From contig JAIPGM010000003.1 in assembly GCA_021735655.1 (NCBI GenBank), positions 32,001 to 96,000 of the forward strand: a stretch of DNA of 64,000 nucleotides. The letters are read 5' to 3'. The DNA comes from Candidatus Omnitrophota bacterium (GTDB lineage: Bacteria; Omnitrophota; Gorgyraeia; Duberdicusellales; 4484-171). The notes below the pieces were generated by a model that had not been told where the DNA came from, did no database searches, and saw nothing but the letters and a program-made list of their open reading frames with translations. Positions within the stretch are counted from its first letter, which is position 1. Each line of letters starts with the position of its first letter. Of the stretch, positions 1-28,448 are shown in pieces. Made by a program: the position numbers and the translations under genes.

Positions 1-2
1 TC

Positions 3-266
3 GGAAAGAACACAATATTAAATACATTATCTTCTATTGACCATGATTGTCAGATTGCAGATTTTGTCCATATTGCTCCCGGTACCAATTTAAGCGGCGG
101 GGTAACTATTGGCAAATTTACTCATATTGGAGTTGGTACAGTTGTTAACCAGGGAATTAATATAGGTTGTAATTGTTTAATCGGTTCAGGCAGCGTAGTG
201 GTTAAAGATATCATTGATAATTTAAAAGCCTTTGGGAATCCTTGTAAAGCTATGGAGAAGAGATGA
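3..266 (+). CDS. Hexapeptide-repeat acyltransferase, 3' fragment (NeuD/PglD-like sugar N-acetyltransferase); 5' end lies outside the window
   Basis: Frame 3 translates to ...HIAPGTNLSGGVTIGKFTHIGVGTVVNQGINIGCNCLIGSGSVVVKD..., the left-handed beta-helix hexapeptide pattern [LIV]-G-x4 found at the C-terminus of NeuD/PglD. It ends at the TGA at 264-266, overlapping the next start as ATGA. Confidence 0.55.
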   Translation, partial: GKNTILNTLSSIDHDCQIADFVHIAPGTNLSGGVTIGKFTHIGVGTVVNQGINIGCNCLIGSGSVVVKDIIDNLKAFGNPCKAMEKR

Positions 267-1159
267 TAAGAATTATACCGCGTCTTGATATTAAAGGTCC
301 TAATCTAGTTAAAGGAGTTCACCTTGAGGGCCTTAGGGTTTTAGGCAAGGCTGAAGATTTTGCTTCAAAATATTATACTGATGGAGCCGACGAGCTTATT
401 TATATTGATGTTGTTGCCAGTCTCTATGGTAGAGAAAATCTTTTAGAGATTGTAAGGAGAACAGCACAAAATATATTTATCCCTTTGACTGCCGGCGGTG
501 GGATAAGGACAATTGACGATATAAAAGAATTATTACGAGCCGGCGCAGATAAGGTAGCAATAAATACTGCTGCCATACGAAATCCAGCCTTTATTAGTGA
601 AGCTGCGAAAGTTTTTGGTTCGCAATGTATTGTTATTTCAATCGAGGCTAAATTTAGAAGTGAAGGTAAGTATGAGGCTTTAACTGATAATGGCAGGGAA
701 AAAACTGATCGTGATGTGTTTGATTGGGTACAGGAGGCGGTTGGCCTTGGTGCCGGAGAACTGCTTATTACTAGTATTGATAAGGAAGGTACTGGTAGAG
801 GATATGATTTGAAGCTAATTAAGAGAATTTCAGAGTCAGTGCCAGTCCCGGTTATTGCCTGTGGCGGTGCTGGAAAGACTAAGCATTTTCTTGAAGTCAT
901 TGAAGACGGTTGCGCCGACGCTATAAGTGCTGCTTCTATTTTTCATTATCATTGTCTAGAAAAGTTGCGCTCCGTTGAAAATTTTAAAGAAGAAGGTAAT
1001 GTTGAGTTCATTAGCCAGAATAGAGAATCATTAGATTTCATGAAAAAGCGGCTTGAACCAGTGGATATTTTAGCTGTTAAAAGATATTTATCTGATTTTG
1101 GTATTGCCTGTAGAGCCATAGAGGCGTTTAGAGAAGTTACAAAAGCAGAAAAGATATGA
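263..1159 (+). CDS. HisF-like imidazole-glycerol-phosphate-synthase cyclase subunit homologue (WbuZ-type, sugar amidotransfer)
   Basis: (beta/alpha)8 HisF motifs: RIIPRLDIKG, DELIYIDV, TAGGGIR and VIACGGAGK. It sits directly beside a HisH-like glutaminase and a PP-loop amidotransferase, as in wbuXYZ/pseA loci. The 298 aa is longer than canonical HisF, indicating a C-terminal extension. Confidence 0.8.
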   Translation: MIRIIPRLDIKGPNLVKGVHLEGLRVLGKAEDFASKYYTDGADELIYIDVVASLYGRENLLEIVRRTAQNIFIPLTAGGGIRTIDDIKELLRAGADKVAINTAAIRNPAFISEAAKVFGSQCIVISIEAKFRSEGKYEALTDNGREKTDRDVFDWVQEAVGLGAGELLITSIDKEGTGRGYDLKLIKRISESVPVPVIACGGAGKTKHFLEVIEDGCADAISAASIFHYHCLEKLRSVENFKEEGNVEFISQNRESLDFMKKRLEPVDILAVKRYLSDFGIACRAIEAFREVTKAEKI

Positions 1160-1848
1160 AAGGATCAAAGCCGATTACTGTGATAGTTGATTATGGAATG
1201 GGCAATCTTTTCAGTCTAGAGAGAGTGATAAGACATCTTGGCGGGACTGCAGTTATATCTTCCGACCCGGAAACTATAGCTTCTGCTGAGCGGGTTATTT
1301 TACCTGGGGTAGGTGCTTTTGGTGATGGTATGGATAAGATAAAAAATCGGGAGTTGGTTGCGCCGATACAAAGAGCTATTGATTCGGGTAAGCCGTTTCT
1401 AGGGATATGTTTAGGCATGCAGCTTCTTATGACCGAGAGTGAAGAGTTTGGTGTTCATGGAGGATTAGATGTTATTTCTGGGTCTGTGCGTAGGTTTTTT
1501 GATTCCAAGGGTGATAAGGCGTCCTATAAGATACCACACGTTGGATGGAACCGCTTGCTTGCTCCTAAGATAGTTGAATTCGGCCAGCCAGTTTCTTGCG
1601 AGGGAAGTAATAAATTTTGGGAGGATACTATTTTAAATACAACTCAAGAGGGTGAATTTGTGTATTTTGTGCATTCGTATACCGTTACCCCTCAGAACCC
1701 TGAGCATATTCTTGCTGAGACTGAATATGGTCAGTCTCGTTTTTGCTCGGCAATACGTTCCAACAATGTGTTTGGCTGCCAGTTTCATCCTGAGGTAAGT
1801 GCGAATGTAGGTTTACGAATCTTAAAAGAGTTTTTATATACTGTTTAA
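1156..1848 (+). CDS. HisH-like class-I glutamine amidotransferase (WbuY-type)
   Basis: VIVDYGMGNLFSL, GVGAFG, a GICLGMQLL catalytic-Cys nucleophile elbow, and a C-terminal FHPE...S motif typical of HisH. The 4-bp overlap with the upstream HisF-like gene suggests translational coupling. Confidence 0.8.
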   Translation: MKGSKPITVIVDYGMGNLFSLERVIRHLGGTAVISSDPETIASAERVILPGVGAFGDGMDKIKNRELVAPIQRAIDSGKPFLGICLGMQLLMTESEEFGVHGGLDVISGSVRRFFDSKGDKASYKIPHVGWNRLLAPKIVEFGQPVSCEGSNKFWEDTILNTTQEGEFVYFVHSYTVTPQNPEHILAETEYGQSRFCSAIRSNNVFGCQFHPEVSANVGLRILKEFLYTV

Positions 1849-1887
1849 GTTTACAAATAGGATTTTTGGCTAGAGAAAGGAGTAATA

Positions 1888-3087
1888 ATGTTATTTCCAG
1901 GAAAAACCTTAGATCGACAGTTGGCAAAAAGCCCCAAAGAGGTTAAATATTGTACAAAGTGCGTGGTTTCAAATCAAAGACCAAGAATTACCTTTGATGA
2001 AAATGGAGTCTGCAGTGCATGTAATTATGCTTATCTTAAGCATAATAAGATTGATTGGGCTAAAAGAGAGAAAATGCTGTTGGAGTTGCTTGATAAGCAT
2101 AGGTCCAGTGATGGAAGTTATGATTGCGTTGTTCCTGGTTCCGGCGGAAAGGATAGTAGTTATGTTGCGCATCAATTGAAATATAAATATCAGATGCACC
2201 CACTTACTGTAACTTGGGCACCTTTTATTTACACAGACGTTGGCTGGCAGAATTATATCGCCTTTAAAGATCATGGGTTTAATAATCTTTTGTGTTTTCC
2301 TGACGGAATAATCCATCGTAAATTAGCTCGTCTTAGTTTTGAATTGTTAGGTGATGCCTGGGAGCCTTTTGCTTATGGGCAAAAGGCATATGCTTTCCAT
2401 ATTGCTACTAAGTTCAAGATTCCTTTAATTTTTTATGGCGAAAGCGGTGAAGTAGAATATGGGGGCTCAACTACTTATATAGATAGTCCGGTAGAGCCAA
2501 CCGATAACTATAGCGAAGTTTATTATAAGGGCTCCGGGGTTGATGAAATTATAAAACATGGTCAAGATGTGGGACTGTTTAGCGAAGAAGAAGTAAAGAG
2601 TAATCCTTTTCAATTTTATCGGATGCCTCCACTTGAGGATGTAGAGAAACTTAAACCACAGATGCACTGGTTTTCTTTTTATAAAAAATGGGTGCCACAG
2701 GAGAATTATTACTACTCTGTTGATCATACTGGTTTTCAAGCAAATTTCGATGGGCGCTCAGAAGGTACCTATTCCAAATATGCTAGCTTAGATGATAAAA
2801 CTGACGGATTCCATTTTTATTTGGCATATATCAAGTTTGGTATTGCCCGAGCTACATCAGATGCTGCGCATGAAATCAGAGACGGGCATCTAACCAGAGA
2901 AGAAGGGGTAGCCTTGGTTCATCGTTACGATGGTGAACTTCCTAAAAAATATTTTAAGGAATTTCTTGAGTATTTAGATATTAAAGAAGAGCAATTCTGG
3001 GAAGTTATTGATTTTTATCGTTCACTTTCTCCCCATCTTTGGGAAAAAATAAATGGTGAATGGAAACTCAAACATAAAGTATTTTGA
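1888..3087 (+). CDS. N-acetyl sugar amidotransferase (WbuX/PseA family, PP-loop ATP pyrophosphatase)
   Basis: PP-loop SGGKDSS at residues 85-91 and a C-x-x-C pair near the N-terminus (CTKCVV...CSACNY). It follows the HisH/HisF pair. An AAGGAG RBS lies 9 nt upstream of the ATG at 1888. Confidence 0.75.
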   Translation: MLFPGKTLDRQLAKSPKEVKYCTKCVVSNQRPRITFDENGVCSACNYAYLKHNKIDWAKREKMLLELLDKHRSSDGSYDCVVPGSGGKDSSYVAHQLKYKYQMHPLTVTWAPFIYTDVGWQNYIAFKDHGFNNLLCFPDGIIHRKLARLSFELLGDAWEPFAYGQKAYAFHIATKFKIPLIFYGESGEVEYGGSTTYIDSPVEPTDNYSEVYYKGSGVDEIIKHGQDVGLFSEEEVKSNPFQFYRMPPLEDVEKLKPQMHWFSFYKKWVPQENYYYSVDHTGFQANFDGRSEGTYSKYASLDDKTDGFHFYLAYIKFGIARATSDAAHEIRDGHLTREEGVALVHRYDGELPKKYFKEFLEYLDIKEEQFWEVIDFYRSLSPHLWEKINGEWKLKHKVF

Positions 3088-3115
3088 AGGTTGAGGATAG
3101 TAAGAAGGATTTAAA

Positions 3116-4195
3116 ATGAAAGACATAAAAAAAATATTTGTAACTAGTAACAATACGATTGAAGAAACTTTAGCTGTTATCCAGCGTGGAGGTGTGGGCA
3201 TAGCTTTGGTTGTAGATAACCAGCAGCATCTAGTTGGCACAATAACTGATGGAGATATCCGTAGGGCTATTTTGAACAAAATCCCTTTAAGTAAAAAAAT
3301 CACTGTCTTGTTTGATTATCGTCCTGAAGACTACCCAGTCCCGGTTTCAATGCCTCATGACATAACTCGTGAAGAGCTCATTGAGATTATGAGTGAGAAA
3401 AAACTAAATCAAATACCGCTCCTCGATAGCGATTCCCACATCGTAGAACTAGCTTTACTTTCGGAGCTTGTCGAAGAAGAGCTTAACTTGCCGGTTAGAG
3501 CAGTAGTTATGGCTGGCGGAAAGGGGCAGCGGTTGCACCCGCTTACTAAAGATACACCAAAACCGATGCTTCTTTTAGAAGATCGTCCCTTGGTGGAACG
3601 TACCATAGCCCAGCTGCGTAGATCAGGAATTACAAAAGTAAATATTTCTACTCATTACAAATCTGATGTGATTATAAAACATTTTGGTAAAGGAGATGCT
3701 TTTGGTGTAGATATTGATTATATTAATGAAGATCAACCATTGGGTACTGCTGGAGCTTTGGGATTAATGAAACCCATTGATGAACCGACTTTAGTTATCA
3801 ATGGAGATGTGTTAACTAAATTAGATTTTCGTAGGTTGCTTGATTTCCATCGCCATCATGATGCGATAATGACTGTAGGGGTGCGCAAGTGCGAGATAGA
3901 GATACCTTACGGAGTTATTGATATTGATGATGTAGTCGTAAAAAAGATTATTGAAAAACCAGTAAAGAATTTTATTGTTAATGCCGGAATTTATTTGTTA
4001 GGACCAATAGCCTATAAGTATATTCCCAAAAATATAAATTTTGATATGACCGATTTAGTTGATGAGTTACTAAAAGCTAAGCATAAAGTAGTCTGCTTTC
4101 CGATACAGGAGTATTGGCTTGACATAGGACATCCTGAAAATTATGAACAAGCAAAGGAGGACATTAAGAATGGCGCACTTCAGCTGGAAAAATAA
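3116..4195 (+). CDS. CBS-domain pair fused to a sugar-1-phosphate nucleotidyltransferase (PtmE-like, possible GlcNAc-1-P guanylyltransferase)
   Basis: The N-terminal ~120 aa look like a CBS pair (VGIALVVDNQQHLVGTITDGDIRRAIL). The C-terminal domain carries the NTP-transferase signature AVVMAGGKGQRLHPLTKDTPKPML. This architecture matches the CBS-nucleotidyltransferase of legionaminic acid pathways. Confidence 0.65.
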   Translation: MKDIKKIFVTSNNTIEETLAVIQRGGVGIALVVDNQQHLVGTITDGDIRRAILNKIPLSKKITVLFDYRPEDYPVPVSMPHDITREELIEIMSEKKLNQIPLLDSDSHIVELALLSELVEEELNLPVRAVVMAGGKGQRLHPLTKDTPKPMLLLEDRPLVERTIAQLRRSGITKVNISTHYKSDVIIKHFGKGDAFGVDIDYINEDQPLGTAGALGLMKPIDEPTLVINGDVLTKLDFRRLLDFHRHHDAIMTVGVRKCEIEIPYGVIDIDDVVVKKIIEKPVKNFIVNAGIYLLGPIAYKYIPKNINFDMTDLVDELLKAKHKVVCFPIQEYWLDIGHPENYEQAKEDIKNGALQLEK

Positions 4196-5171
4196 AAAAG
4201 TTTTTGTTACCGGTGCCGGAGGATTTATCGGAAGTCACTTGTGTGAATGTTTAGTTAAGCTAGGCGCAAAGGTAAAGGCAATGGCAGAGTATAACTCCTT
4301 GGGAAGATGGGGTTGGCTTGATTATTCTAGTTTACATGATGAAATGGATATTTTTTTAGGCGATATCAGAGATAGAGACAGCACCAGAGAAGCTGTTAAG
4401 GGCCAGGATATGGTTTTTCACCTAGCGGCTCTTATAGGTATACCTTATTCTTATATAGCTCCAGCTTCATATATTGAAACTAATATAGCTGGCACTCTTA
4501 ATTTATTGCAAGCAGCAAGAGAGTATGATATCGAATGTTTTTTACAGACCTCAACTAGTGAGACTTATGGAACCGCTCAATATACCCCTATTGATGAAAA
4601 GCATCAACTTCAGGGTCAATCTCCTTATTCAGCTTCGAAAATAGGTGCAGACAAAATGGCAGAGAGTTTTTATCGTTCTTTCAAAGTTCCGGTAGTAACG
4701 GTTAGGCCTTTTAATACCTATGGCCCCAGACAGTCTGCCCGGGCAGTTATACCTACAATTATTACACAAATTTTAGAAAAAGATAAAGTCTGCATTGGTT
4801 CGCTTGCTCCCAGGCGTGATTTGACCTATGTCCAGGATATTGCCTTAGCCTTCATTGGTGCAGCCCAGGCAGGCAAATCTGCCTTTGGTGAAGTGTTTAA
4901 TGTTGGCTCGGGAAAGTCAATATCTATAGGTGAATTAGCCCAAGTGATTGCTAAGCTTATTGGAAAAGAGGTACCCGTAGAAAGCAGTTGCCAGCGTATA
5001 AGGCCAGAGGCTAGTGAAGTAATGTTGTTGATGGCAGATAGTAGTAAAGCTAAAAAAATATTTGGGTGGGAACCAAGCCTTTCTCTAGAAGAAGGACTCA
5101 AGAAAACAATTGAATGGTTTAAGGATAAGGATAATTTAAAGTTATATAAAAATGACCGTTATGTAGTATAA
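4170..5171 (+). CDS. NAD-dependent NDP-sugar 4,6-dehydratase/epimerase (extended SDR, LegB/PseB-like)
   Basis: Rossmann motif VFVTGAGGFIGSHL and catalytic YxxxK (PYSASKIGADK). The start is reassigned to the ATG at 4170, which is preceded by AAGGAGG at 4154-4160; the ORF-track start at 4143 would overlap the upstream gene by 52 nt. Confidence 0.7.
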   Translation: MAHFSWKNKKVFVTGAGGFIGSHLCECLVKLGAKVKAMAEYNSLGRWGWLDYSSLHDEMDIFLGDIRDRDSTREAVKGQDMVFHLAALIGIPYSYIAPASYIETNIAGTLNLLQAAREYDIECFLQTSTSETYGTAQYTPIDEKHQLQGQSPYSASKIGADKMAESFYRSFKVPVVTVRPFNTYGPRQSARAVIPTIITQILEKDKVCIGSLAPRRDLTYVQDIALAFIGAAQAGKSAFGEVFNVGSGKSISIGELAQVIAKLIGKEVPVESSCQRIRPEASEVMLLMADSSKAKKIFGWEPSLSLEEGLKKTIEWFKDKDNLKLYKNDRYVV

Positions 5172-5181
5172 GGTTAAAACA

Positions 5182-6381
5182 ATGAGCTCTATGAATAAAA
5201 AAATTACTGTCAGTACATCAATTAATGACTTAATTCCTTTAAGCGTTCCTGAAATTAAGGGTAATGAATGGAAATATATAAAGGAGTGCCTAGATACCAA
5301 TTGGGTTTCATCAGTAGGAAGTTATGTTGATCAATTTGAAAATGCTGTAGCTGATTATGTTGGGCGCGGTTATGGTGTAGCTTGTGTTAATGGTACATCA
5401 GCCTTGCATGTAGCTCTTTTACTTTCGGGTATAAAATCTCAAGAGGAAGTTTTACTTCCGGCGCTTACCTTTGTCGCACCGGCCAATGCTATTTGCTATA
5501 CTGGGGCAAAGCCAGTTTTTATTGACGTTGATCTTGATAATTGGCAAATAGATACAGGAAAGATTTTAGGGTTTTTGAAAAAAGAGTGTAAATATCAAAA
5601 AGGAAAGTTAATTAATAAGAATACCGGTAGAGTAATTAAAGCAATAATGCCTGTGCATATACTAGGACACCCGGCTGATATGGACGCTATCATGAGCATT
5701 GCCCGAAAATATAAACTAAAAGTTATTGAAGATGCTGCTGAAGGATTAGGGTCAGCCTATAAAAATCGACCTCTGGGAATTTCAGGAGATATTGCTTGTT
5801 TTAGCTTTAATGGAAACAAGATATTAACTACTGGCGGCGGAGGTATGGTTGTTGTTGATAAAAAATCCTGGTCTGATCGGGCCCGTTATCTTATAACTCA
5901 AGCCCGGAATAATGTCTTAGAGAATATTCACAATGAAATTGGCTACAATTACCGCCTGACCAATATTCAAGCTGCTATGGGTTTTGCCCAGATGGAGCAA
6001 CTCGATAAATTTGTTGAGAAAAAGAGAGATATTGCTCGTCGATATAATGAGCAATTAAAAGATGTACCGGGAATCGGCTTACCAAAAGAAGCTTCCTGGG
6101 CTAAATCCAATTACTGGCTATATACAATCTTTGTTGACAGAGCTAAATATAGAATTGATAGCAGAGCTTTATTAGAAAAACTAAAAAGATCTAATATCCA
6201 GACTCGGCCTCTGTGGCACCCTTTACATTCCCTAAAGCCGTTTAAAAAGTGTTTTTCTTACAAGATAAAAGTAGCCAATAAATTGTATAAAAATTGTTTG
6301 AGCTTGCCTTCATCAGTAGGGCTTACCAAGAGCGATCAAAAGAAAGTCATCGACATTATAAAACGCAGTAGGAGCTTGTAA
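5182..6381 (+). CDS. DegT/DnrJ/EryC1/StrS family PLP-dependent sugar aminotransferase (LegC/PseC-like)
   Basis: Fold-type I aminotransferase motifs: a GTSALHVAL, DAAEGLGS, and SFNGNKILTTGGGG in which the PLP lysine is present. Confidence 0.75.
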   Translation: MSSMNKKITVSTSINDLIPLSVPEIKGNEWKYIKECLDTNWVSSVGSYVDQFENAVADYVGRGYGVACVNGTSALHVALLLSGIKSQEEVLLPALTFVAPANAICYTGAKPVFIDVDLDNWQIDTGKILGFLKKECKYQKGKLINKNTGRVIKAIMPVHILGHPADMDAIMSIARKYKLKVIEDAAEGLGSAYKNRPLGISGDIACFSFNGNKILTTGGGGMVVVDKKSWSDRARYLITQARNNVLENIHNEIGYNYRLTNIQAAMGFAQMEQLDKFVEKKRDIARRYNEQLKDVPGIGLPKEASWAKSNYWLYTIFVDRAKYRIDSRALLEKLKRSNIQTRPLWHPLHSLKPFKKCFSYKIKVANKLYKNCLSLPSSVGLTKSDQKKVIDIIKRSRSL

Positions 6382-6393
6382 AAGGAGTAGTCT

Positions 6394-7434
6394 ATGAGCC
6401 CAGACATGAATATAGTGCGTTCCCAGAAACTTGCCGATAAAATTGTTATTGTAGACGGACAACCCGGTTGCGGTAAAACTATGCTTTCACCGATTGTTGC
6501 TGCTTTGGATAGGGTGGAGTTACTTATGTTTGTTTATGAGATAGAATATTTTTGCGCTTTAAGATATTTACAAAAAATGGATAAAGATACAGCCGAAACT
6601 TTAATTAAATTGATTACTGATTTAAGAATTTATAATGCAATGATGTCGCGGGAAGTAAATTTTCGCTTCAGCGATGCTTCAAGCGCCTTTAAAGATATAA
6701 ATCCCCTGAAATACATTAGGAGGCTTTTTCAAAAGGGTGATGACTTGGTCCCTGAAAGAATAAAGAACCAGAGACCAATTTTGCATTTGGCTACCCATGA
6801 TCTCTTAAGCAGGGCCGATTCAGTTTTTGCTGCTTTAGGTGAAAATCTTGTTTTTATAGAGGTGGTGAGGCATCCTTTATACATGCTTAAACAAGAAGCA
6901 GTTAATATGCAGCGGCTATTCTTATCCGATCCTAAGCATTTTGAAGTATATTTTTCTTATAAGGATAAAGAGTTGCCTTATTTTGTTTATGGGTGGGAGG
7001 ATTTATTTTTTTCTTCTAATCATATTGAAAAAGCTATCTATTTAATCAATAGCATGACTGAGAGAACAGAGGCTTTTAAGAATAATGTAGAGGAAAAGTT
7101 GAACGGAGCTAAGTTGATAACAATTCCTTTTGAAGGTTTTGTGATAAGTCCTGAACCTTATTTGAAAGAAATAGAATTAGCTTTAGACACAAAAGTAACT
7201 AAGGCTACGCGTAAAATGATGAAACGTCAGAATGTGCCACGTAAGATGTATGCTCAAGGTGTTAAACTCGATGTTTACGAAAAGTATGGATGGGAGGCAC
7301 CTAAATCAACAGATGAGTATAGTGAATTAAACCTGCGTCGGAAATTTGCCCAAGATAATGCTTCTGAGGATGCAATGGTTGTGCTTGATAGGCTTTCTAA
7401 AAAGTATGAAGATGAATATTTAAATAAAAAGTAA
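6394..7434 (+). CDS. P-loop (Walker A) protein of unknown function inside the nonulosonic-acid module; candidate kinase or sulfotransferase-like enzyme
   Basis: A Walker-A-like VIVDGQPGCGKTML lies near the N-terminus. No other family signature was recognised by eye. The gene is tightly packed between the aminotransferase and the cytidylyltransferase. Confidence 0.3.
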   Translation: MSPDMNIVRSQKLADKIVIVDGQPGCGKTMLSPIVAALDRVELLMFVYEIEYFCALRYLQKMDKDTAETLIKLITDLRIYNAMMSREVNFRFSDASSAFKDINPLKYIRRLFQKGDDLVPERIKNQRPILHLATHDLLSRADSVFAALGENLVFIEVVRHPLYMLKQEAVNMQRLFLSDPKHFEVYFSYKDKELPYFVYGWEDLFFSSNHIEKAIYLINSMTERTEAFKNNVEEKLNGAKLITIPFEGFVISPEPYLKEIELALDTKVTKATRKMMKRQNVPRKMYAQGVKLDVYEKYGWEAPKSTDEYSELNLRRKFAQDNASEDAMVVLDRLSKKYEDEYLNKK

Positions 7435-7448
7435 AAGAGAGGTTTATT

Positions 7449-8111
7449 GTGAAAACAATTGTATTAGTTCCGGCAAAACTTAAAAGTGACAGAGTTCCTT
7501 TTAAAAATATAAAACAGTTAGGTGGAGTTCCTTTAGTCAATTATACCATGCGTACTTTAAATAAACTTTCAGACATTAATGATATTGTTGTTTTTGCCTC
7601 AGAGCCTTCCATATGCGAGTATATACAGCGCGGATTAAAATATACATTCCTGGAGCGTCCGACAGAGCTGGATACTCAAGATACAAAAATACAGGATATT
7701 ATAAGAGAGTTTTTAAACAGAAGTGATGCCGATATAGTTGTCCTAGTGCATATTACTTCACCATTTTTGCAGGCTGAAACAATCTCTGACTGCATAAAAA
7801 AGGTTCATTCTGGTCAGTATCATACAGCTTTCACTGCATATGAAGTTAGAAAATTCTGTTGGTTTCGCGATAAACCGCTTAACTATTCTTTAGATAAACC
7901 TACACCACGCACTCAGGATATAAACCCGGTAGTTGTAGAGCAGGCTAGTTTATATGTATTTAGGAGAGAGGTTTTTGAAAAAACAGGCCAGCGGATTTGC
8001 TCTAAGCCTTATATTAAATATATTGATCATTTCGAGGGCCATGATATTGATACTCCGGAAGACTTTAGGGTTGCAGAATTGATTGTTAATACAGGTCTCT
8101 TTGCAATATAG
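7449..8111 (+). CDS. Acylneuraminate cytidylyltransferase family (CMP-nonulosonic acid synthetase, NeuA/LegF/PseF-like)
   Basis: N-terminal VLVPAKLKSDRVPFKNIKQLGGVPLVNYT matches the CMP-NeuAc/CMP-Kdo synthetase glycine-rich loop. GTG start with an AGAGAGG RBS upstream. Confidence 0.75.
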   Translation: MKTIVLVPAKLKSDRVPFKNIKQLGGVPLVNYTMRTLNKLSDINDIVVFASEPSICEYIQRGLKYTFLERPTELDTQDTKIQDIIREFLNRSDADIVVLVHITSPFLQAETISDCIKKVHSGQYHTAFTAYEVRKFCWFRDKPLNYSLDKPTPRTQDINPVVVEQASLYVFRREVFEKTGQRICSKPYIKYIDHFEGHDIDTPEDFRVAELIVNTGLFAI

Positions 8112-8122
8112 GATGTAATTAA

Positions 8123-9262
8123 ATGGATCAAGAAACAATTTTTAAGAAAATTTACAATGTCGAACTTAACCAGGATAAGTATGACATTGTAATTGGTAAA
8201 GGTTTACTTGAAACTGCTGTTTTAGAAGCCTTAGAGAAACGGACTAAAAATAAGAATGTTGTTTTTGTCTTTGATGTATTTTTTCAAGATAGAAGCAATG
8301 CTTTTATAGATTTTTTATCTAAGGCTGGCTACAAAGTTTACCCATATTATATGGTAGCTGGCAAGCATAATAAAACTATAAGTGAGGCAATAAAAATATA
8401 CGAAATTCTTGAGGCTAACAGTCTATCTAGAGACTCAACTATAGTAGCTTTAGGAGGTGGTGTTCTTGGCGATTTAGCTGGATTCGTAGCAAGCACATAT
8501 CATCGCGGGATGAAGCTTATAAATATACCGACCACCCTTACGGCCATGATTGACAGTAGCATTGGAGGCAAGGTCGCTATAAATTTCAGAAAGACTATTA
8601 ATGCCATAGGAAATTACTATCATCCTATAGCAAATGTTATTGATTTTAAATTTATTAGTACATTACCTCAACGTGACTTTAAGGCTGGACTGGCTGAGAT
8701 AATAAAATGTGCAATTATTAACGATAAAGAACTGTTTGATTATCTTAAATCTAATAGCCAGAAGATTCTTGACCGGGATGAAGATTCTTTATTCAATATC
8801 ATGTGTCGAGCCATAGAGATTAAACTTGTTCATGTATCAGGGGATGTGAAGGAGAAGAATGAGAGACTCAAGCTCAATTACGGCCACACCTTAGGACATT
8901 CCATAGAGATTTCGACCGATGTCTTAGAGGAGATTTATCGCCATGGAGAGGGGGTGTCTCTTGGCATGGTTGCTGCAGCATTTTTGGCAAGAAAATATTT
9001 TGGACAAGGTCAAGATATCTTAGATGCTCATGAGGAGATTCTTAACCAGTATGGCCTTCCAACCCGAGTTCATGCAAAAGATATTGGTTTTGAATATAAG
9101 AGTTTGATTGAAGAATGTATGCGAAATGTTCATAAAGATAAAAAGAAAAAGGATAACAAACTCAGATTTATTCTTCCTGATGAAATTGGTAAATGCCAGG
9201 TCTACGATCGTGTGGCAGATGATGCTATCAGGGAGGCATTTGTTTATCTTATAAAGGAGTGA
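8123..9262 (+). CDS. 3-dehydroquinate synthase-like sugar-phosphate cyclase superfamily protein
   Basis: Signature of the DHQS/2-deoxy-scyllo-inosose synthase family: ALGGGVLGDLAGFVASTYHRGMKLINIPTTLTAMIDSSIGGKVAINF. Metal-binding histidines are in the C-terminal half (NYGHTLGHSIE). Confidence 0.7.
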   Translation: MDQETIFKKIYNVELNQDKYDIVIGKGLLETAVLEALEKRTKNKNVVFVFDVFFQDRSNAFIDFLSKAGYKVYPYYMVAGKHNKTISEAIKIYEILEANSLSRDSTIVALGGGVLGDLAGFVASTYHRGMKLINIPTTLTAMIDSSIGGKVAINFRKTINAIGNYYHPIANVIDFKFISTLPQRDFKAGLAEIIKCAIINDKELFDYLKSNSQKILDRDEDSLFNIMCRAIEIKLVHVSGDVKEKNERLKLNYGHTLGHSIEISTDVLEEIYRHGEGVSLGMVAAAFLARKYFGQGQDILDAHEEILNQYGLPTRVHAKDIGFEYKSLIEECMRNVHKDKKKKDNKLRFILPDEIGKCQVYDRVADDAIREAFVYLIKE

Positions 9263-9263
9263 T

Positions 9264-10025
9264 ATGAAAGAAAAAAAATCTTTAGAAAGAAAAACTTGTA
9301 TTATAACTGGATCTGGTAAGGGAATTGGAAGAGCAGCCGCAGAGCTTTTTTATAATCATGGGGCTAACTTGGCATTGATTACCAGAGATAAACAAGACTT
9401 GATATCCTTAAGGGACGATGTCGGATTTGACGATGAACGAATTTTTCTAAGCCAGGGAGACGTCTCTGATGAGGAAACGGTTAAAAGATTCATACAAGAA
9501 ACTATAGGAAAATTTAAAAAAATAGATGTTCTTATTAATAATGCCGGTATACGTTTCAGGAAAGATTTTTTAGACACCACGACAGAGGAGTGGGATCAAG
9601 TAATTAATAATAACCTCAATAGCACATATCTTTTTTCTAGGGAAGCAGGGCGAAATATGGTTTCAAGAAAAGAGGGCAAAATTGTTAATATTGTATCGAT
9701 TGTAGGTACGCTTGGATTGCCTCAGCTTTCCGCATACGGAGCATCAAAAGGAGGAGTAATCACGCTTACGAAATGCTTAGCTTTAGAGTGGGCCAAATGC
9801 AATATTAATGTTAACGCTATTGCCCCAGGATTTTGCGAAACATCGTATGTAGAAAAGTTTAGAAAAAAAGAAGAACTATATAAATTTACTATAGAAAGGA
9901 CGCCGCAGAAAAAATGGGGAACTTCTCTTGACATAGCAGAAGCCTGTCTTTTCTTATCCACAGAAGCATCTAAGTATATTACTGGTGAAGTGTTAAATGT
10001 TGATGGTGGTTGGAGTGCTTGGTAA
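9264..10025 (+). CDS. Short-chain dehydrogenase/reductase (SDR, FabG/PtmA-like)
   Basis: TGSGKGIGRAAA (TGxxxGxG), NNAG, and YGASKGG (YxxxK). Confidence 0.8.
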   Translation: MKEKKSLERKTCIITGSGKGIGRAAAELFYNHGANLALITRDKQDLISLRDDVGFDDERIFLSQGDVSDEETVKRFIQETIGKFKKIDVLINNAGIRFRKDFLDTTTEEWDQVINNNLNSTYLFSREAGRNMVSRKEGKIVNIVSIVGTLGLPQLSAYGASKGGVITLTKCLALEWAKCNINVNAIAPGFCETSYVEKFRKKEELYKFTIERTPQKKWGTSLDIAEACLFLSTEASKYITGEVLNVDGGWSAW

Positions 10026-10109
10026 AAATAATAAATTAAGAATAAAAAATGTTTTAAGATAGTAGAAAATTATTGTATTTTGTAATTAATATTGAGACAA
10101 ATATTTAAA

Positions 10110-12260
10110 ATGGGAATGAGGGGTGAGGAGAAAAATAATCAGAGAAGTTATTATATACAAAATCTTACAGTCGCTCCTTGGCTAGTATCGATAGCTCCTT
10201 ATCTAATGCGTAATTTTTTCAAGGGGAATAGAAATATCAAAGTTTATTTTATCGATGCTTCAATATGTGGTTTATGGCTGGCGCGCTTCATGTTATTATT
10301 TTTTGGTCTCAAGCTTAATGAGTTGAAATTTCGTTTGGTTGATGTCCATGATGACGATGGTGTTCTTCTGCATCTACGAGTAGATTATTTTGATTCTACG
10401 GTTGTGCAAAAATATATATTGGAAAGGCCTATTTTCTCGGAGCTGTTTTTAAACAAGCCTGCTAAAAGTAGAATAGCTATGTTTTTGGCAAAACGCATTT
10501 TTGCCTCTGCTAGTAAGCCTGAATCGACATTAGATAGAGCAGTTTATCTCATTCAAGTAGTTAAGCAAAAGTCAAAAGAGTATGTAGCTGAATGCTTGCA
10601 GCCTGTTTTGTTTTTGGACAGAAGGTTGTGGATGAATGAAATTAAAAGATATGCGTGCAAGCATAATATATCTGTTATTGGCGCTAAAAGTTTTAATATC
10701 AATTTTAAATATTTTTTATTAGGGTTTTTGGGACCAAAAATAAATATTTTAAAAAATATCTATTTTTGGTTTTTAAGAATAAAAAGAAGTTTTTGCAGTA
10801 AGTATGGCTGGATTGTTAAAAATAAGAAATCAATTTCAATCGTTATCAGACATAAAAAAAATAATGCAGATAATAGCATTATTGGTAGCCAGGTAAAGCT
10901 TGGGGTTAACTATTATGGTCATCTTAATCTTAATAATCCAGAACTGTATTCGGATTTATTTTTTTTACAGCAGTCAGATTTATCAGGAAAAGATATTTTA
11001 ATCGTATCTAATATGCTGTTTGATCCCATTGATGATAAAAAATTAATGGAGATTGCCAAGCATGATATGAATGTAGTTGCGCTTTCAGCAAAGGCAACTA
11101 ATAGTTTTTCCGTGCCGTTTTTTTACCATTGGCCGAGTCGTAGCTCAAATTCATCGTTTAAGTTTATCTCAAAAAATGCTTATAATGGCGATGAGCGCAG
11201 ATGGTTTCTGCGGCAGATGAGAGACTACTATAAGGATTGTAATTATTGGCAGGATTTTTTTGCAAAGCATAATGTTAAGGCATTTATGACTTGGTATAAG
11301 TATGATGCTTCTCACTGTGTTGTTGCCGATGCCATGCGGAATGTTGGAGGAATAATGGCTGTTTATCAACGCGCCTTTGAGGAATTTCCTTCTTGCAAGA
11401 CAACGATTGCGTCTGATGTTGTGTTTGGTTTTTCGCCTGCAAATGCTGAGATTGAACGTCTTTCCGGTTCACAGATTTCCTACCATATTTCTACAGGTTA
11501 TTATGCTGACTACAGGCTACCTTTGCTAAAGGCGCATGCACAGAGGGTGCGCACATCTCTACAGCAAAGAGGAGCTAAACAAATTATTGCTTATTTTGAT
11601 GAAAATTCCGGAGCTGATTCTCGTTGGCATAATGGGCATGAATCTACAATAGCTAATTATGATTTTTTACTTAAAAAAGTTTTATCTCAAAAATGGTTTG
11701 GTCTTATTTTAAAACCTAAGGTTCCCTCAACGTTAAGATTGAGGCTGGGGCTAACGGCAGACTTACTTAAGGAAGCAGAAGCAACTGGAAGGTGTTTTGT
11801 CTTTGAGGCAGGGGCCTTGCATAGTGCCTACCCTCCCGCTATAGCTGCTCTAGCTTCTGATATCGCCATCCACGGTCATCTGTATGCTGCAACAGCTGGG
11901 CTTGAATCAGCGCTTGCAGGAGTCCCTACTCTTTTACTTGATCGTGAAGGCTGGTCGATTAGTAAATTATACCATTTGGGTTTAGGACGGGTAGTTTTTA
12001 CTGATTGGCAAAGTCTTTGGAAAACATATATTGAATATTGGCAGGATTCCAGGAAGGTGCCAGGCTTCGGCGATTGGTCTTCGATGATAAATGATTTAGA
12101 TCCTTTCAGAGATGGCCGAGCAGCAGAAAGAATAGGTACATACTTGAAGTGGTTGCTTGACGGCTTTAAGCAAGGGCTTAAACGAGAAGATATTATGGCT
12201 TCTGCCGCAGAGCGTTATGCTAGGATTTGGGGAAGTGATAAAATAGCTACACTGGGGTAG
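10110..12260 (+). CDS. Large hypothetical protein (about 715 aa); the C-terminal region resembles GT-B glycosyl/phosphoglycosyl transferases of capsule or teichoic-acid type
   Basis: Long + strand ORF. The start is uncertain: the track gives a TTG at 10092, and the first in-frame ATGs are at 10110 and 10116. The C-terminal segment ...EAGALHSAYPPAIAALASDIAIHGHLYAATAGLESALAGVPTLLLDREGW... looks like a GT-B C-terminal nucleotide-binding fold. An AT-rich 85-bp intergenic precedes it. Confidence 0.3.
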   Translation: MGMRGEEKNNQRSYYIQNLTVAPWLVSIAPYLMRNFFKGNRNIKVYFIDASICGLWLARFMLLFFGLKLNELKFRLVDVHDDDGVLLHLRVDYFDSTVVQKYILERPIFSELFLNKPAKSRIAMFLAKRIFASASKPESTLDRAVYLIQVVKQKSKEYVAECLQPVLFLDRRLWMNEIKRYACKHNISVIGAKSFNINFKYFLLGFLGPKINILKNIYFWFLRIKRSFCSKYGWIVKNKKSISIVIRHKKNNADNSIIGSQVKLGVNYYGHLNLNNPELYSDLFFLQQSDLSGKDILIVSNMLFDPIDDKKLMEIAKHDMNVVALSAKATNSFSVPFFYHWPSRSSNSSFKFISKNAYNGDERRWFLRQMRDYYKDCNYWQDFFAKHNVKAFMTWYKYDASHCVVADAMRNVGGIMAVYQRAFEEFPSCKTTIASDVVFGFSPANAEIERLSGSQISYHISTGYYADYRLPLLKAHAQRVRTSLQQRGAKQIIAYFDENSGADSRWHNGHESTIANYDFLLKKVLSQKWFGLILKPKVPSTLRLRLGLTADLLKEAEATGRCFVFEAGALHSAYPPAIAALASDIAIHGHLYAATAGLESALAGVPTLLLDREGWSISKLYHLGLGRVVFTDWQSLWKTYIEYWQDSRKVPGFGDWSSMINDLDPFRDGRAAERIGTYLKWLLDGFKQGLKREDIMASAAERYARIWGSDKIATLG

Positions 12261-13061: not shown

Positions 13062-14018
13062 TTGTGCAGAGCGAATAAATTTATGAGAAATAAAATTAAT
13101 TTTTTAAAGGGATATGTCAAAAGGTATGTAGTTGCTGCATATAAACGACAGAAGTTACAGGCAGGTGAGTTTCCCCCCCAGCTATGGATAGAGAATACCA
13201 ATCATTGTAATGCAGCGTGTGTCATGTGTCCTCGTGATAAGCATAATCGGTCGCTTGGTTTTATGGAGTTTTCCCTTTTTGAACGTCTGATTAAGGAAAT
13301 AGCTGTACATAAAAATAATGTTTCAGCTGTTCATATGCATAATTATGGCGAACCGCTTATGGATAAAGAATTAATCAAAAAAGTAAAACTAGCTAAGGAT
13401 TATGGGATAAAACATGTTTATTTTGTTACCAACGCAGCATTGTTGACTAGTGATTTATCAGAAAAGCTAATAGCCTCAGGGCTTGATCAATTTAAAATAA
13501 GTTTTTATGGAACCGATAGACAAACATATAACGCTACAATGAGAGGGCTTGATTTTGATCAAACAATGTCTAATGTTAAGCAATTTTTCCAAATACGAAA
13601 GAAGATGAAGTCCCTTCAACCTAAAGTTATAATTCAATACCTTCCTCAGTCTCACAACAAGGCAGAAATTAGCAAATTTAAAAGTATTTTTGATTCCATG
13701 ATTGATTCTAAATTAGGCGATAGGTTGAATATTTATTCTTTGTTGAATTTCGGGGAAGGGAGAAGTTATAATAACTTTGCCAGAAGAATAGTTAGTTCAA
13801 TATGCAATTATCCGTGGAGGACTATGGTGGTATTGCATGATGGCCGGGTTACGGCTTGCTGTATGGATTATAATGGGGTTTTATCTATGGGAAATGTTAC
13901 TCAGAGCACTATAAAGCAAATATGGAATAACCAAACTTATAAAAAAATCAGAGAGGATTTTAAAAAGCTTGATTACAAAGAATACCAGGTTTGTAGAAAT
14001 TGTGATCTTATTTTTTAG
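13062..14018 (+). CDS. Radical SAM enzyme with SPASM-like C-terminal cysteine cluster
   Basis: CNAACVMCPRD carries the CxxxCxxC 4Fe-4S/SAM motif. Additional C-terminal cysteines (ACCMDYNG ... CRNCD) are consistent with an auxiliary-cluster (SPASM/twitch) domain. Confidence 0.65.
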   Translation: MCRANKFMRNKINFLKGYVKRYVVAAYKRQKLQAGEFPPQLWIENTNHCNAACVMCPRDKHNRSLGFMEFSLFERLIKEIAVHKNNVSAVHMHNYGEPLMDKELIKKVKLAKDYGIKHVYFVTNAALLTSDLSEKLIASGLDQFKISFYGTDRQTYNATMRGLDFDQTMSNVKQFFQIRKKMKSLQPKVIIQYLPQSHNKAEISKFKSIFDSMIDSKLGDRLNIYSLLNFGEGRSYNNFARRIVSSICNYPWRTMVVLHDGRVTACCMDYNGVLSMGNVTQSTIKQIWNNQTYKKIREDFKKLDYKEYQVCRNCDLIF

Positions 14019-23990: not shown

Positions 23991-24776
23991 ATGAAAGCAG
24001 TAATATTATGTGGAGGAAGAGGGACAAGAATTAGAGATGCCTCAGAAGTTTTACCTAAGTCAATGCTTCCGGTGGGCAATATGCCCTTGCTTTGGCATAT
24101 AATGAAAATTTACGCTCATTATGGGATAAAAGATTTCGTTTTATGCCTTGGTTATAAAGGGTGGGCGATAAAAGAGTTTTTTTTAAATTATCAAGCTAAG
24201 GTTTTTGATGTAGTGTTGAAGTTAGATAAAGAAAATTCAATAATTTATGGCCAAAACCATCATGAAAAGTTAGATTGGAAAATCTCGCTTGTAGAAACAG
24301 GCGAAGAATCACAAACCGGAGCAAGAATTTGGAATGCACGCAAATATTTAGAAGATTGTGATATGTTTTGTGTAACTTATGGTGACGGTGTTGGCAATAT
24401 CGACATCAAATCTTTAATAGAAGTTCATAAAAAATCGGGTTTACTTGGCACAATAACTGGAGTTCATCCTTCAGGCCGTTTTGGCGAAATAGAGACAAAA
24501 GGTAAGATTATTTCTTCTTTCGCAGAGAAGCCAAATGTAAGCTTTGGTTCTTATAATGGCGGGTTTATGGTTTTTGATAGAAAAGTTTTAGGAAAATATT
24601 TTAGATCTGGAAAAGATTTGATATTGGAGGCAGAAACTTTGCCTAATATGGTGAATGACAAGCAGTTAGGAATATATGAGCATAATGGTTTTTGGCAATG
24701 TGTTGACACTAATCGGGAATTAGAAATATTGGAGGGTTTATGGAATTCTTCTAATCCTCCTTGGAAAGTATGGTGA
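23991..24776 (+). CDS. rfbF: Glucose-1-phosphate cytidylyltransferase
   Basis: MKAVILCGGRGTRIRDASEVLPKSMLPVGNMPLLWHIMKIYAHYGIKDFVLCLGYKGWAIKEFF is highly similar to the RfbF/DdhA N-terminus (AVILAGGLGTRL...KPILWHIMKIYS). It is followed by a 4,6-dehydratase and the E1 dehydrase. Confidence 0.85.
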   Translation: MKAVILCGGRGTRIRDASEVLPKSMLPVGNMPLLWHIMKIYAHYGIKDFVLCLGYKGWAIKEFFLNYQAKVFDVVLKLDKENSIIYGQNHHEKLDWKISLVETGEESQTGARIWNARKYLEDCDMFCVTYGDGVGNIDIKSLIEVHKKSGLLGTITGVHPSGRFGEIETKGKIISSFAEKPNVSFGSYNGGFMVFDRKVLGKYFRSGKDLILEAETLPNMVNDKQLGIYEHNGFWQCVDTNRELEILEGLWNSSNPPWKVW

Positions 24777-25753: not shown

Positions 25754-26490
25754 AGATAAATTTTTTAGGAACAAATGGATGGTACGATACTGATACCGGA
25801 AATACTCTTTGTATTCTTATTGAAACTAAAAAAGAATATATTATTCTCGATGCCGGAGGCGGTTTTTACAAAATTGGTCAATATATAAAGAAAAAGAAGC
25901 CAATTTATCTTTTCTTAAGCCATTTTCATCTCGACCACATTATTGGACTTCATACCTTATTGCTAGGTAACTTTTCTCAGGGGATTAAGCTTTACGGACC
26001 ACCGGGAGTAAAGAAATACTTATCACAAATAGTAAATTATCCTTATACAGCGCCAATTTCTAAGTTAAAAACAAAGGTTATCGTTAATCAAATTAAAAAA
26101 GAAGTACGTTTTCCTTTTAAGGTTGAGTTTGGCAAGCTGCTTCATCCTTCATTATGTTACGGCTATCGGTTTAATTTGGAAGGCAAAACAATTGTTTATT
26201 GCACCGATACCGGAATTTGCAGTAATTTATATAAGTTAGCTAGGGATTCTGATTTATTTATTACTGAATGCTCGGCGACTGCCGGAAAAAAGGAAAAGGA
26301 TTGGCCTCATTTAACGGCTCAGGATGCAGCTAAGGTTGCTAAGAAATCCCAAGTAAAAAAATTATTTTTAGTTCATTTTAATGCTTCCTTATTTAAAACT
26401 GAAAAGCAACGCAATATGGCTAAGGCACAAGCAAAAGAGATATTTGGGAATACTTTTGCGGCCAGTGACGGACAAGTAGTTAATTTATAA
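25750..26490 (+). CDS. MBL-fold metallo-hydrolase (RNase Z/PhnP-like fold)
   Basis: LSHFHLDHIIGL (HxHxDH) and downstream His/Asp ligands. Embedded in the CDP-sugar module. Confidence 0.6.
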   Translation: MKINFLGTNGWYDTDTGNTLCILIETKKEYIILDAGGGFYKIGQYIKKKKPIYLFLSHFHLDHIIGLHTLLLGNFSQGIKLYGPPGVKKYLSQIVNYPYTAPISKLKTKVIVNQIKKEVRFPFKVEFGKLLHPSLCYGYRFNLEGKTIVYCTDTGICSNLYKLARDSDLFITECSATAGKKEKDWPHLTAQDAAKVAKKSQVKKLFLVHFNASLFKTEKQRNMAKAQAKEIFGNTFAASDGQVVNL

Positions 26491-26501
26491 AGCTTTAAAT
26501 A

Positions 26502-28435: not shown

Positions 28436-28448
28436 TAAGGAGTAGACA

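Follow-up and report, generated by a model that had tools for sequence, protein, structure and literature searches.

A dehydroquinate synthase-like gene in an Omnitrophota glycan locus: most likely the core of a widespread gene cassette that makes a CMP-activated acid from DAHP

Why should a gene that reads as 3-dehydroquinate synthase (DHQS; AroB) lie between a cytidylyltransferase gene and a short-chain dehydrogenase/reductase (SDR) gene in a glycan locus? The question is raised by a stretch of 64,000 nucleotides from Candidatus Omnitrophota bacterium (assembly GCA_021735655.1, contig JAIPGM010000003.1, positions 32,001 to 96,000 of the forward strand), which was analysed over its full length and is called the window here; positions are counted from its first letter, and the DHQS-like gene occupies 8123–9262. 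Our analysis indicates that the product of this gene most likely stands at the centre of a widespread and so far uncharacterised cassette that makes a cytidine monophosphate (CMP)-activated acid derived from 3-deoxy-D-arabino-heptulosonate 7-phosphate (DAHP), and that it is most likely neither AroB in function nor a modifier of a nine-carbon sugar. The cassette is most likely a CMP-ulosonate pathway with a recruited DHQS, its closest logic being that of the 3-deoxy-D-manno-octulosonate (Kdo) pathway, with a lyase and a reductase in exchange for the phosphatase.

Family, active site and clade of the DHQS-like protein

In the open reading frame (ORF) listing of the window, 8123–9262 (forward strand) encodes a 379-aa protein from an ATG start, and the ORF represents a real gene, at a level far above chance. 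Both LGGGVLGDLAGFVASTYHRGMKLINIPTTLTAMIDSSIGGKVAINF and the GGGVLGDLAGF...IPTTLTAMIDSSIGGKVAINF stretch occur in its translation; from the latter an initial annotation of this DNA had assigned it to the DHQS superfamily. That assignment is borne out by both DHQS Pfam domains (DHQ_synthase PF01761, 4.1e-39; DHQS_C PF24621, 1e-34), by the NCBIfam equivalog model TIGR01357 for aroB (318.0 bits, cut-off 305), by the closest solved structures, all of them 3-dehydroquinate synthases (best 3okf, E 6.8e-55), and by an AlphaFold (AF2) model built with 26 family members (pLDDT 88.9, pTM 0.88), for which the top 37 Foldseek matches in the PDB were all DHQSs (TM 0.80–0.87). In sequence comparison with PDB entries most DHQSs scored 151–190 bits, and ValA, DDGS and the DOIS BtrC 116.7, 96.2 and 122.6 bits, respectively. 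In both structure and sequence the protein belongs to the DHQS family, whose fold joins an N-terminal Rossmann-like domain to a C-terminal helical one, and an identical public entry from Candidatus Omnitrophica bacterium carries the annotation 3-dehydroquinate synthase.

DHQS uses its bound NAD+ to oxidise the C5 hydroxyl of DAHP; the 7-phosphate then leaves by E1cB elimination and C5 is re-reduced, after which the ring-opened enolate cyclises. The active-site set of AnDHQS, made up of R130, D146, K152, N162, E194, K197, K250, R264, L267, N268, H271, H275, H287 and K356 (reportedly so listed by Carpenter et al. 1998), was transferred to the window protein through alignments to solved relatives, and corresponds there to R128, D144, K150, N160, E192, K195, K234, R248, L251, N252, H255, H259, H274 and K340. 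All 14 residues, which cover the phosphate, carboxylate, hydroxyl and Zn ligands, occur at a frequency of 1.00 in 59 family members, as they do at the same positions of 75 canonical AroBs apart from K197 and L267 (0.99 each). The replacement of the carboxylate- and phosphate-binding pattern that marks enzymes of the EEVS, DDGS and DOIS type is absent from the window protein, which keeps the DHQS pattern in full, and its Pfam score for the iron-dependent alcohol dehydrogenase (Fe-ADH) family, the branch of KdnB, is below the cut-off. The likeness to KdnB, EEVS, DDGS or DOIS considered in the initial annotation is therefore not sustained, the active site being that of a DHQS. With DAHP as substrate, the enzyme is predicted to carry out an NAD(P)+-dependent oxidation and to eliminate the phosphate.

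Around this conserved core the clade carries invariant substitutions (window numbering K81, Y165, H167, C196, H237, L249, R273 and G277). C196 stands beside K195, H237 near K234 and L249 beside R248, R273 and G277 flank the metal ligand H274, and Y165 and H167 are F and Q in canonical AroBs. K81 (window 8363–8365) is Lys in 100% of the clade and Glu, within the GExxK motif, in 100% of the 75 canonical AroBs. In AnDHQS the corresponding Glu81 touches the adenine ribose, and the exchange may reflect a change of cofactor preference or binding mode. A change from acidic to basic at an adenine-ribose site usually signals use of NADP+, and by analogy K81 may do so in the clade; a rule that the GExxK Glu of DHQS sets NAD+ specificity was not found in the literature consulted, which yielded only the analogous Fe-ADH rule.

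Placement within the superfamily, which the initial annotation had proposed as a check, gave a monophyletic AroB-like clade: in a neighbour-joining tree from a joint alignment, 59 full-length clade members form a single group, with identities of 42–100% inside the clade (median 52%) and of 26–39% between clade and canonical AroBs. Homologues 50–71% identical to the window protein occur in Omnitrophota, Zambryskibacteria of the Candidate Phyla Radiation (CPR), Ignavibacteriae, Brocadiaceae, Deltaproteobacteria, Saganbacteria, Sulfurovum mangrovi and Arcobacter, and a genome scan added clade homologues in metagenome-assembled genomes (MAGs) of Pseudomonadales and Legionellales. The canonical set comprises the 75 AroBs among the matches listed in a genome-contig scan with a full-length family alignment, and the window protein is 30–40% identical to these; the matches listed in that scan are mostly canonical AroBs, with L006–L008 the only clade loci among them. 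Canonical AroBs of other Omnitrophota and Brocadiaceae genomes (L025, L019) are 33–37% identical to the window protein. A more distant subfamily (34–40% identity) scores 254 bits with TIGR01357, below the cut-off, and other clade members score 308–312. The window protein neither groups with the canonical AroBs nor has their GExxK Glu, and no shikimate-pathway (aro) gene lies within the 64-kb window. Among 1.84 billion representatives no fusion of a clade protein was found, the longer matches in that search presumably being canonical fusions of the AroK-AroB type.

Conservation of the cassette across glycan loci

For comparison of gene neighbourhoods, 72 clade loci were gathered and their ORFs labelled by BLAST; a metagenome scan with the single window protein gave no matches, and the metagenome loci were found with a family-specific motif alignment. 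In the window, 11 nt separate the cytidylyltransferase stop from the start of the DHQS-like gene, and the SDR gene begins 1 nt past the DHQS-like stop, with its AAGGAG ribosome-binding site inside the DHQS-like 3' end. Across the loci, the gene immediately before the DHQS-like one encodes a cytidylyltransferase of the window type (CTP220; 46–74% identity) in 51 of the 55 with room for it, and an orthologous SDR (49–71% identity) follows directly downstream in 46/57, its place being taken by an aldo-keto reductase (AKR) in 8/57, so that one or the other is found in 54/57. A cytidylyltransferase homologue also lies two genes downstream in 40/48 loci, and 41 of the 43 fully flanked loci have at least one cytidylyltransferase (CTP_transf_3) nearby. 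The position between cytidylyltransferase and SDR in a nonulosonate context (legionaminate (Leg) genes lie upstream), and the functional tie to these two neighbours, both put forward in the initial annotation, are thus upheld, the latter by synteny in about 70 loci. The AKR variant, in which a 339-aa protein stands for the SDR (L107, L110–L112, L114, L119, L124 and L138), echoes the AKR domain of EpaA from the Acinetobacter 8-epi-pseudaminate module.

These results bear on another explanation, that of an ordinary shikimate-pathway AroB which happens to lie in a glycan locus. Its catalytic residues are all present, it passes the aroB model (318 bits against 305) and its public annotation is 3-dehydroquinate synthase, all as expected of such an enzyme. 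Against this stand a monophyletic clade that is only 26–39% identical to canonical AroBs yet 50–70% identical across unrelated phyla, the gene order with cytidylyltransferase and reductase, kept near-perfectly in about 70 loci, the translational coupling to the SDR gene, the presence of the gene in a CPR genome, the lack of any shikimate gene in the 64-kb window, and the mere 33–37% identity of the canonical AroBs in other Omnitrophota and Brocadiaceae. A chance placement therefore has very little to recommend it, and it is very unlikely that the window gene is the housekeeping AroB.

The commonest gene order is CTP220 – DHQS-like – SDR – KdsB-like, and the KdsB-like enzyme of many cassettes scores 227–236 bits with NF003952 (cut-off 193). 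Where a second cytidylyltransferase, KdsB-like or other, follows downstream, the CTP220 protein has lost the motif PxK/R..S.R.P.KN and shows PFW/PYW... instead; such a degenerate CTP220 lies directly upstream of the DHQS-like gene in L001, L006, L007, L099, L100 and about 35 other loci, and is, from its sequence, probably a pseudo-enzyme or repurposed. Where CTP220 is alone in the cassette, as in the window, the N-terminal nucleotide-binding motif is intact (VPAKLKSDRVPFKN). Since the motif is lost only where a second enzyme follows, each cassette appears to have one competent cytidylyltransferase, and in the window CTP220, whose closest solved relatives are CMP-Neu5Ac synthetases, is the predicted active CMP-transferase.

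Cassettes were found in a lipooligosaccharide (LOS) core cluster of Sulfurovum (L001), in an O-antigen-like cluster of the ABC-transporter type in a CPR genome (L002) and in flagellin/FliD neighbourhoods of Legionellales and Pseudomonadales MAGs (L007, L008). The more distant subfamily has the same partners, arranged as SDR – KdsB-like – DHQS-like – radical SAM. L088 (14778–19877) encodes a fusion of a transaldolase/FSA-like protein with a CBS domain, in the vicinity of a KdsA-like gene (DAHP_synth_1, 279 aa) and a second cytidylyltransferase; the fusion may provide an aldolase route to arabinose-5-phosphate that replaces KdsD.

Among the 29 loci of at least 12 kb, a flagellin gene was present in three and a NeuB homologue in only six, which argues that the cassette is independent of nonulosonate synthesis. 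The gene thus falls outside any described nonulosonate pathway, as the initial annotation had held, and action on a nine-carbon backbone, which it had also considered, is not supported: NeuB is absent from 23/29 long loci, and the fusions described below point to DAHP. The locus is also present in another assembly (L005, in which position 10001 equals window 263), which reaches about 10 kb upstream of the window and holds the rest of a legionaminate pathway; its positions 1–10004 encode NeuB, a NeuC-like epimerase, a PglD-like acetyltransferase, a PseF/LegF-like cytidylyltransferase and an SDR, together with three Gfo/Idh/MocA genes, an aminotransferase and a NeuB-CTP_transf_3 fusion (587 aa). 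The Leg pathway having its own PseF/LegF-like enzyme there, upstream of the window, CTP220 is not needed as a CMP-nonulosonate synthetase, the part the initial annotation had given it. With moderate confidence we regard the cassette as running alongside the surrounding legionaminic acid pathway and as separate from it. The Gfo/Idh/MocA, cytidylyltransferase and SDR trio of L005 resembles an epimerisation module of the ElaABC type, and on that likeness the organism may also make epi-legionaminate.

A different role in the same locus would be that of an oxidase/reductase pair, the DHQS-like protein and the SDR epimerising or otherwise modifying legionaminic acid, another nonulosonate or its CMP form, after the manner of ElaA/ElaC, EpaA/EpaB, AciE, or KdnB on Kdo. 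The cassette does lie inside a Leg locus (LegB, LegC and WbuXYZ in the window, NeuB and others upstream), NeuB is nearby in L086, L088, L090, L123 and L152/154, and the known C8-epimerisation modules unite a cytidylyltransferase with two oxidoreductases (PMC13656337, PMC12053666). Yet a NeuB homologue is missing within about 10 kb in 23/29 long loci, the contig already has an Ela-like set (three Gfo/Idh/MocA genes, a cytidylyltransferase and an SDR) adjoining NeuB, the DAHP-specific phosphate- and carboxylate-binding residues are invariant, the clade gene is linked to a DAHP synthase and alternates with a KdsC-type phosphatase (see below), and the fold of ElaA is different. This role is improbable. 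ElaA was likewise considered as a DHQS-like precedent and rejected, being a Gfo/Idh/MocA protein; the cassette differs from an ElaABC-type module in the DHQS-fold protein at the place of the oxidase as well as in the rarity of NeuB.

DAHP synthase fusions and the proposed pathway

The substrate is indicated by fusion proteins in relatives. The order in L104 is DHQS-like gene, SDR, a small MptE-like protein and a 498-aa fusion, whose N-terminal 230 aa are a cytidylyltransferase of the CTP220 type and whose C-terminal part is a DAHP synthase (NF006421 409 bits, cut-off 335). In L104, L169 and L170 the DHQS-like – SDR pair lies beside such a CTP_transf_3::DAHP-synthase fusion of about 500 aa (NF006421 391–409 bits). 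Seven clusters of these fusions were found; in them the cytidylyltransferase stands where ordinary Marinimicrobia DAHP synthases have a regulatory FXD domain, and the synthase domains share 58–68% identity with those enzymes. The fusions point to DAHP as the substrate of the DHQS-like enzyme. The MptE-like Pfam family presumably includes the Maf flagellin glycosyltransferases; in BLAST, MptE-like (Maf-type) proteins showed no similarity to the unknown large proteins of the window.

The neighbours of the fusion were inspected in five marine lineages. In two of these (L104/P0121 and P0124) the DHQS-like gene and the SDR are directly upstream, with no small haloacid dehalogenase (HAD) phosphatase, and in the other three (P0122, P0123 and P0125) a 163–166-aa HAD phosphatase is directly upstream, with no DHQS-like or SDR gene, so that the two are mutually exclusive in 5/5 lineages. 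The HAD neighbour of P0123 belongs to the KdsC family (TIGR01670 135.9, cut-off 106.95), and those of P0122 and P0125 are assigned by Pfam Hydrolase_3 only. Marine metagenome contigs L171–L178 show the same fusion directly behind the 163–166-aa phosphatase (KdsC family by TIGR01670 for L171), and L177 and L178 also have an MptE-like (Maf-type) gene and a methyltransferase. Between the two variants the synthase domains are 72–79% and the cytidylyltransferase domains 64–70% identical, and from the latter the substrates of the two should be alike. The phosphatase variant is predicted to be a Kdo-type pathway one carbon shorter that gives CMP-3-deoxy-arabino-heptulosonate, and the DHQS-like enzyme with its reductase reads as holding the phosphatase's place in the other variant. 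The Kdo-type arrangement of a synthase linked to CTP_transf_3 with a phosphate-removing step is thus seen in relatives' loci; the window cassette itself consists of the cytidylyltransferase, the DHQS-like gene and the SDR, with no synthase encoded locally.

We put at about even the prospect that 7449–10025 is a self-contained cassette making a CMP-activated seven-carbon acid of the 3-deoxy-ulosonic type from DAHP; its substrate and product in this organism, and the order of the steps, we infer from sequence comparison. DAHP would come from the cell's DAHP synthase or, in some marine bacteria, from the synthase fused to the cytidylyltransferase. The AroB-like enzyme would transiently oxidise the C5 hydroxyl with bound NAD(P)+ and then lose the 7-phosphate by E1cB elimination, thereby replacing the KdsC-type phosphatase of a Kdo-like pathway. 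The keto compound would be reduced by the SDR (by the AKR in some lineages), and the NeuA-like enzyme would activate the product with CTP, for a neighbouring transferase to add it to a surface glycan, LOS or flagellin. Two versions of the middle steps can be drawn: either the hydride is returned to C7, as in RmlB, and the SDR reduces the C5 keto group, or the SDR reduces C6 of a 3,7-dideoxy-2,6-diulosonate. The favoured product of either version is a 3,7-dideoxy-hept-2-ulosonate, which would then be CMP-activated. KduD and gluconate-5-dehydrogenase reduce ketones of sugar acids, and the window SDR, predicted to reduce the keto product, scores about 207–215 bits on the models for KduD and gluconate 5-dehydrogenase, below their cut-offs; its kinship to these enzymes and to FabG is compatible with the proposed reduction and not diagnostic of it. 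In a wider and more tentative form of the proposal, which we rate as possible and somewhat less than even, a copy of AroB would have been recruited after duplication to act as a phosphate-eliminating 5,7-dehydratase, turning DAHP into 7-deoxy-heptulosonic acids; together with CMP-DAH these would make up a third class of CMP-ulosonates (C7) next to Kdo (C8) and the nonulosonates (C9), decorating LOS, flagellins and other surface glycans in a wide range of bacteria, most of them uncultivated and CPR among them. No description of this cassette, of a heptulosonic-acid glycan, or of a link between DHQS or heptulosonic acid and nonulosonates, flagellin or CMP was found in the searchable literature, which covers few subscription journals.

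Several points weigh against this pathway. The DHQS catalytic residues are all kept, so that the simplest product would be dehydroquinate, and the free diulosonate intermediate reportedly cyclises spontaneously, as Bartlett and Knowles are said to have found. The window cassette itself encodes no DAHP synthase, and the scheme does not account for a source of DAHP in CPR carriers, in which no shikimate pathway is expected. The evidence from fusions comes from five marine lineages, with the KdsC model applied to one of the three HAD phosphatases, and the second, degenerate cytidylyltransferase homologue is unaccounted for in the scheme.

The first of these points leads to a carbocyclic alternative, in which the enzyme is a true dehydroquinate synthase, the SDR turns 3-dehydroquinate into quinate or an epimer of it, and the tertiary C1 hydroxyl of that acid is then cytidylylated. 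The product would be a carba-analogue of a 3-deoxy-ulosonic acid, and would match the cyclitol-type substituent suggested in the initial annotation. The 14 retained residues, the aroB score above cut-off and the DHQS fold all fit such an enzyme, the DAHP synthase fusions fit it equally well, and on chemical grounds quinate is similar to a 3-deoxy-ulosonate ring in the region of the carbon bearing the hydroxyl and the carboxylate. The two candidate products, the 3,7-dideoxy-heptulosonate and the carbocycle, are isomers. Chemical reasoning also counts against the carbocycle, since a carbocyclic tertiary centre would have no oxocarbenium-type stabilisation in transfer and CMP activation would be of no obvious use. 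Sulfurovum, Pseudomonadales and Legionellales surely have AroB and would need no divergent, strongly conserved paralogue to make dehydroquinate, the clade has invariant second-shell changes by the catalytic residues (R273, C196, H237, L249 and Y165/H167), and the same fused cytidylyltransferase (64–70% identity) works in the phosphatase variant, and what that variant makes must be a pyranose ulosonate. The near-constant ketoreductase, and an enzyme of the NeuA/KdsB type that uses the anomeric hydroxyl on CTP, favour a pyranose sugar acid. A cyclitol-type product is therefore conceivable, given the DHQS active site and fusions that suit both products, but unlikely, and the route to a 3,7-dideoxy-heptulosonate remains the one we favour.

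Two other substrates were considered. A CMP-ulosonate with CMP as leaving group (its P-O-C2-C3-C4 mirrors the P-O-C7-C6-C5 of DAHP) was rejected because the carboxylate ligands would be misplaced, the donor would be destroyed and the link to DAHP synthase explains the data better. Kdo-8-phosphate was rejected as well, its phosphate not being beta to an oxidisable ring-adjacent carbon.

The surrounding locus and known systems

The features around the cassette are collected in Table 1.

Table 1. Genes in and next to the DHQS-like cassette, with window positions, strand and basis of assignment
Feature	Position	Strand	Basis
WbuZ/WbuY/WbuX-type amidotransferase genes	263–3087	+	
CBS-nucleotidyltransferase	3116–4195	+	
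LegB	4143–5171	+	NCBIfam
LegC	5182–6381	+	NCBIfam
P-loop protein, 346 aa, Walker-A-like GQPGCGKT	6394–7434	+	
NeuA/PseF-like cytidylyltransferase (CTP220)	7449–8111	+	Pfam CTP_transf_3 1.9e-18
DHQS-like (AroB-clade) enzyme	8123–9262	+	Pfam, NCBIfam, fold
Classical SDR ketoreductase, FabG/KduD/gluconate-5-dehydrogenase-like	9264–10025	+	Pfam adh_short_C2 7.7e-62
GT-B-fold protein, 722 aa (684 aa from NCBI start)	10092–12260	+	AF2 model and Foldseek
Methyltransferase, radical-SAM and glycosyltransferase genes	downstream of 12260	+	

The CBS-nucleotidyltransferase resembles PtmE of the Campylobacter pathway. The P-loop protein, for which no Pfam, NCBIfam or PDB match was found, also stands between LegC and the cassette in L089 (73% identity) and has a 28% identical relative in L120; possible identities are a kinase or an enzyme like a sulfotransferase. 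The large protein directly downstream of the SDR has no Pfam or NCBIfam match, and its family comprises 76 homologue clusters, all annotated as hypothetical, from Omnitrophota, Margulisiibacteriota and others. Its GT-B fold is confidently predicted (AF2 pLDDT 86.4), with only remote likeness to known enzymes (Foldseek matches to the GT-B enzymes UDP-GlcNAc 2-epimerases, HepE, OtsA and TagF); homologues lie near the cassette in six loci, and the fold model makes the protein a weak candidate for the transferase of the cassette product.

The glycan region extends to about 56.9 kb, beyond which housekeeping genes follow (xseA, pnp, ftsK, rodZ). Within it, a run at 23991–32498 (+) encodes a nucleotidyltransferase, a 4,6-dehydratase, a metallo-beta-lactamase-fold protein, an acylating acetaldehyde dehydrogenase with a DmpG-like aldolase, a thiamine diphosphate enzyme, an epimerase and a DegT aminotransferase, which suggests a pathway to a branched-chain or otherwise unusual nucleoside diphosphate (NDP)-sugar. 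A sulfate adenylyltransferase gene adjoins a CDP-glycerol glycerophosphotransferase-like gene (52800–53903 and 51710–52807, both +), a pair that hints at sulfated and/or phosphodiester-linked glycans; sulfotransferase domains occur near the cassettes of L006 and L087. The locus also encodes a radical-SAM/SPASM enzyme and a B12-binding radical-SAM enzyme (13062–14018 and 44957–46396, +), and related radical-SAM genes lie beside the cassette in L086, L087, L090 and L094 and in the distant subfamily (L155–L166). The ORF at 53927–54469 gave no informative family or PDB match. All called genes of the window (1–64000) are on the + strand, GC content is 32–40%, and each 2-kb bin has a positive GC skew, so that the cumulative skew climbs monotonically to 5.7.

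If the proposed pathway is right, thousands of glycan-locus genes annotated as 3-dehydroquinate synthase would be mis-assigned to aromatic amino-acid synthesis and shikimate-pathway calls in MAGs and CPR genomes would be inflated. There would also be a new family of sialic-acid-like C7 sugars, and DHQS chemistry would have a new role, that of deoxygenation via phosphate elimination in nucleotide-sugar biosynthesis. Cultured carriers of the cassette exist in Sulfurovum mangrovi and Arcobacter.

Among known systems, AroB (EC 4.2.3.4) shares with the clade enzyme the fold, the Pfam domains, the 14 active-site residues and a score above the aroB cut-off, and probably also the substrate DAHP and the first steps, namely NAD+-mediated oxidation at C5 and phosphate elimination. 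The clade enzyme differs in forming a group of its own at 26–39% identity, in the GExxK Glu to Lys change and the invariant second-shell changes beside catalytic residues, in always being found with cytidylyltransferase and ketoreductase genes of glycan loci and never with shikimate genes, and probably in its product. EEVS, EVS, DDGS and DOIS, and the Fe-ADH KdnB, belong to the same superfamily with the same NAD+/metal chemistry; the first four have altered substrate-binding residues, whereas the window protein keeps the full DHQS set, and KdnB is of the Fe-ADH branch, for which the window protein scores below the Pfam cut-off. The ElaABC, EpaAB and Aci modules of Acinetobacter baumannii are alike in uniting a dedicated cytidylyltransferase with two redox enzymes, one of them an SDR, in glycan loci (PMC13656337, PMC12053666). 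Their oxidase, however, is a Gfo/Idh/MocA protein (ElaA) or an AKR domain (EpaA) in contrast to the DHQS fold found here, and all three act on C9 sugars, always with nonulosonate synthases, which the DHQS-like cassette mostly lacks.

Closer in logic are the Kdo pathway (KdsA-KdsC-KdsB) and the KDN and Neu5Ac-9-phosphate pathways, in which a phosphorylated 3-deoxy-ulosonate derived from phosphoenolpyruvate loses its terminal phosphate and is activated with CMP by a CTP_transf_3 enzyme; a KdsB-like enzyme is present in many cassettes and a KdsC-family phosphatase in the sister fusion variant. The proposed pathway would differ in starting from a C7 sugar (DAHP), not from C8 or C9, and in removing the phosphate by a redox-assisted lyase and a reductase instead of by hydrolysis; the product would accordingly be deoxygenated or modified in another way. 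On mechanistic reasoning only, it may also resemble RmlB/RmlD, GMD/RMD and PseB/LegB in the transient oxidation at the position beside the carbon with the leaving group, the elimination, the return of the hydride and the separate ketoreductase, and would resemble systems of the RmlB/RmlD type in giving a terminal deoxy (methyl) sugar; unlike these, it would employ a DHQS and not an SDR fold, expel phosphate and not water, and act on a sugar-acid phosphate and not on an NDP-sugar.

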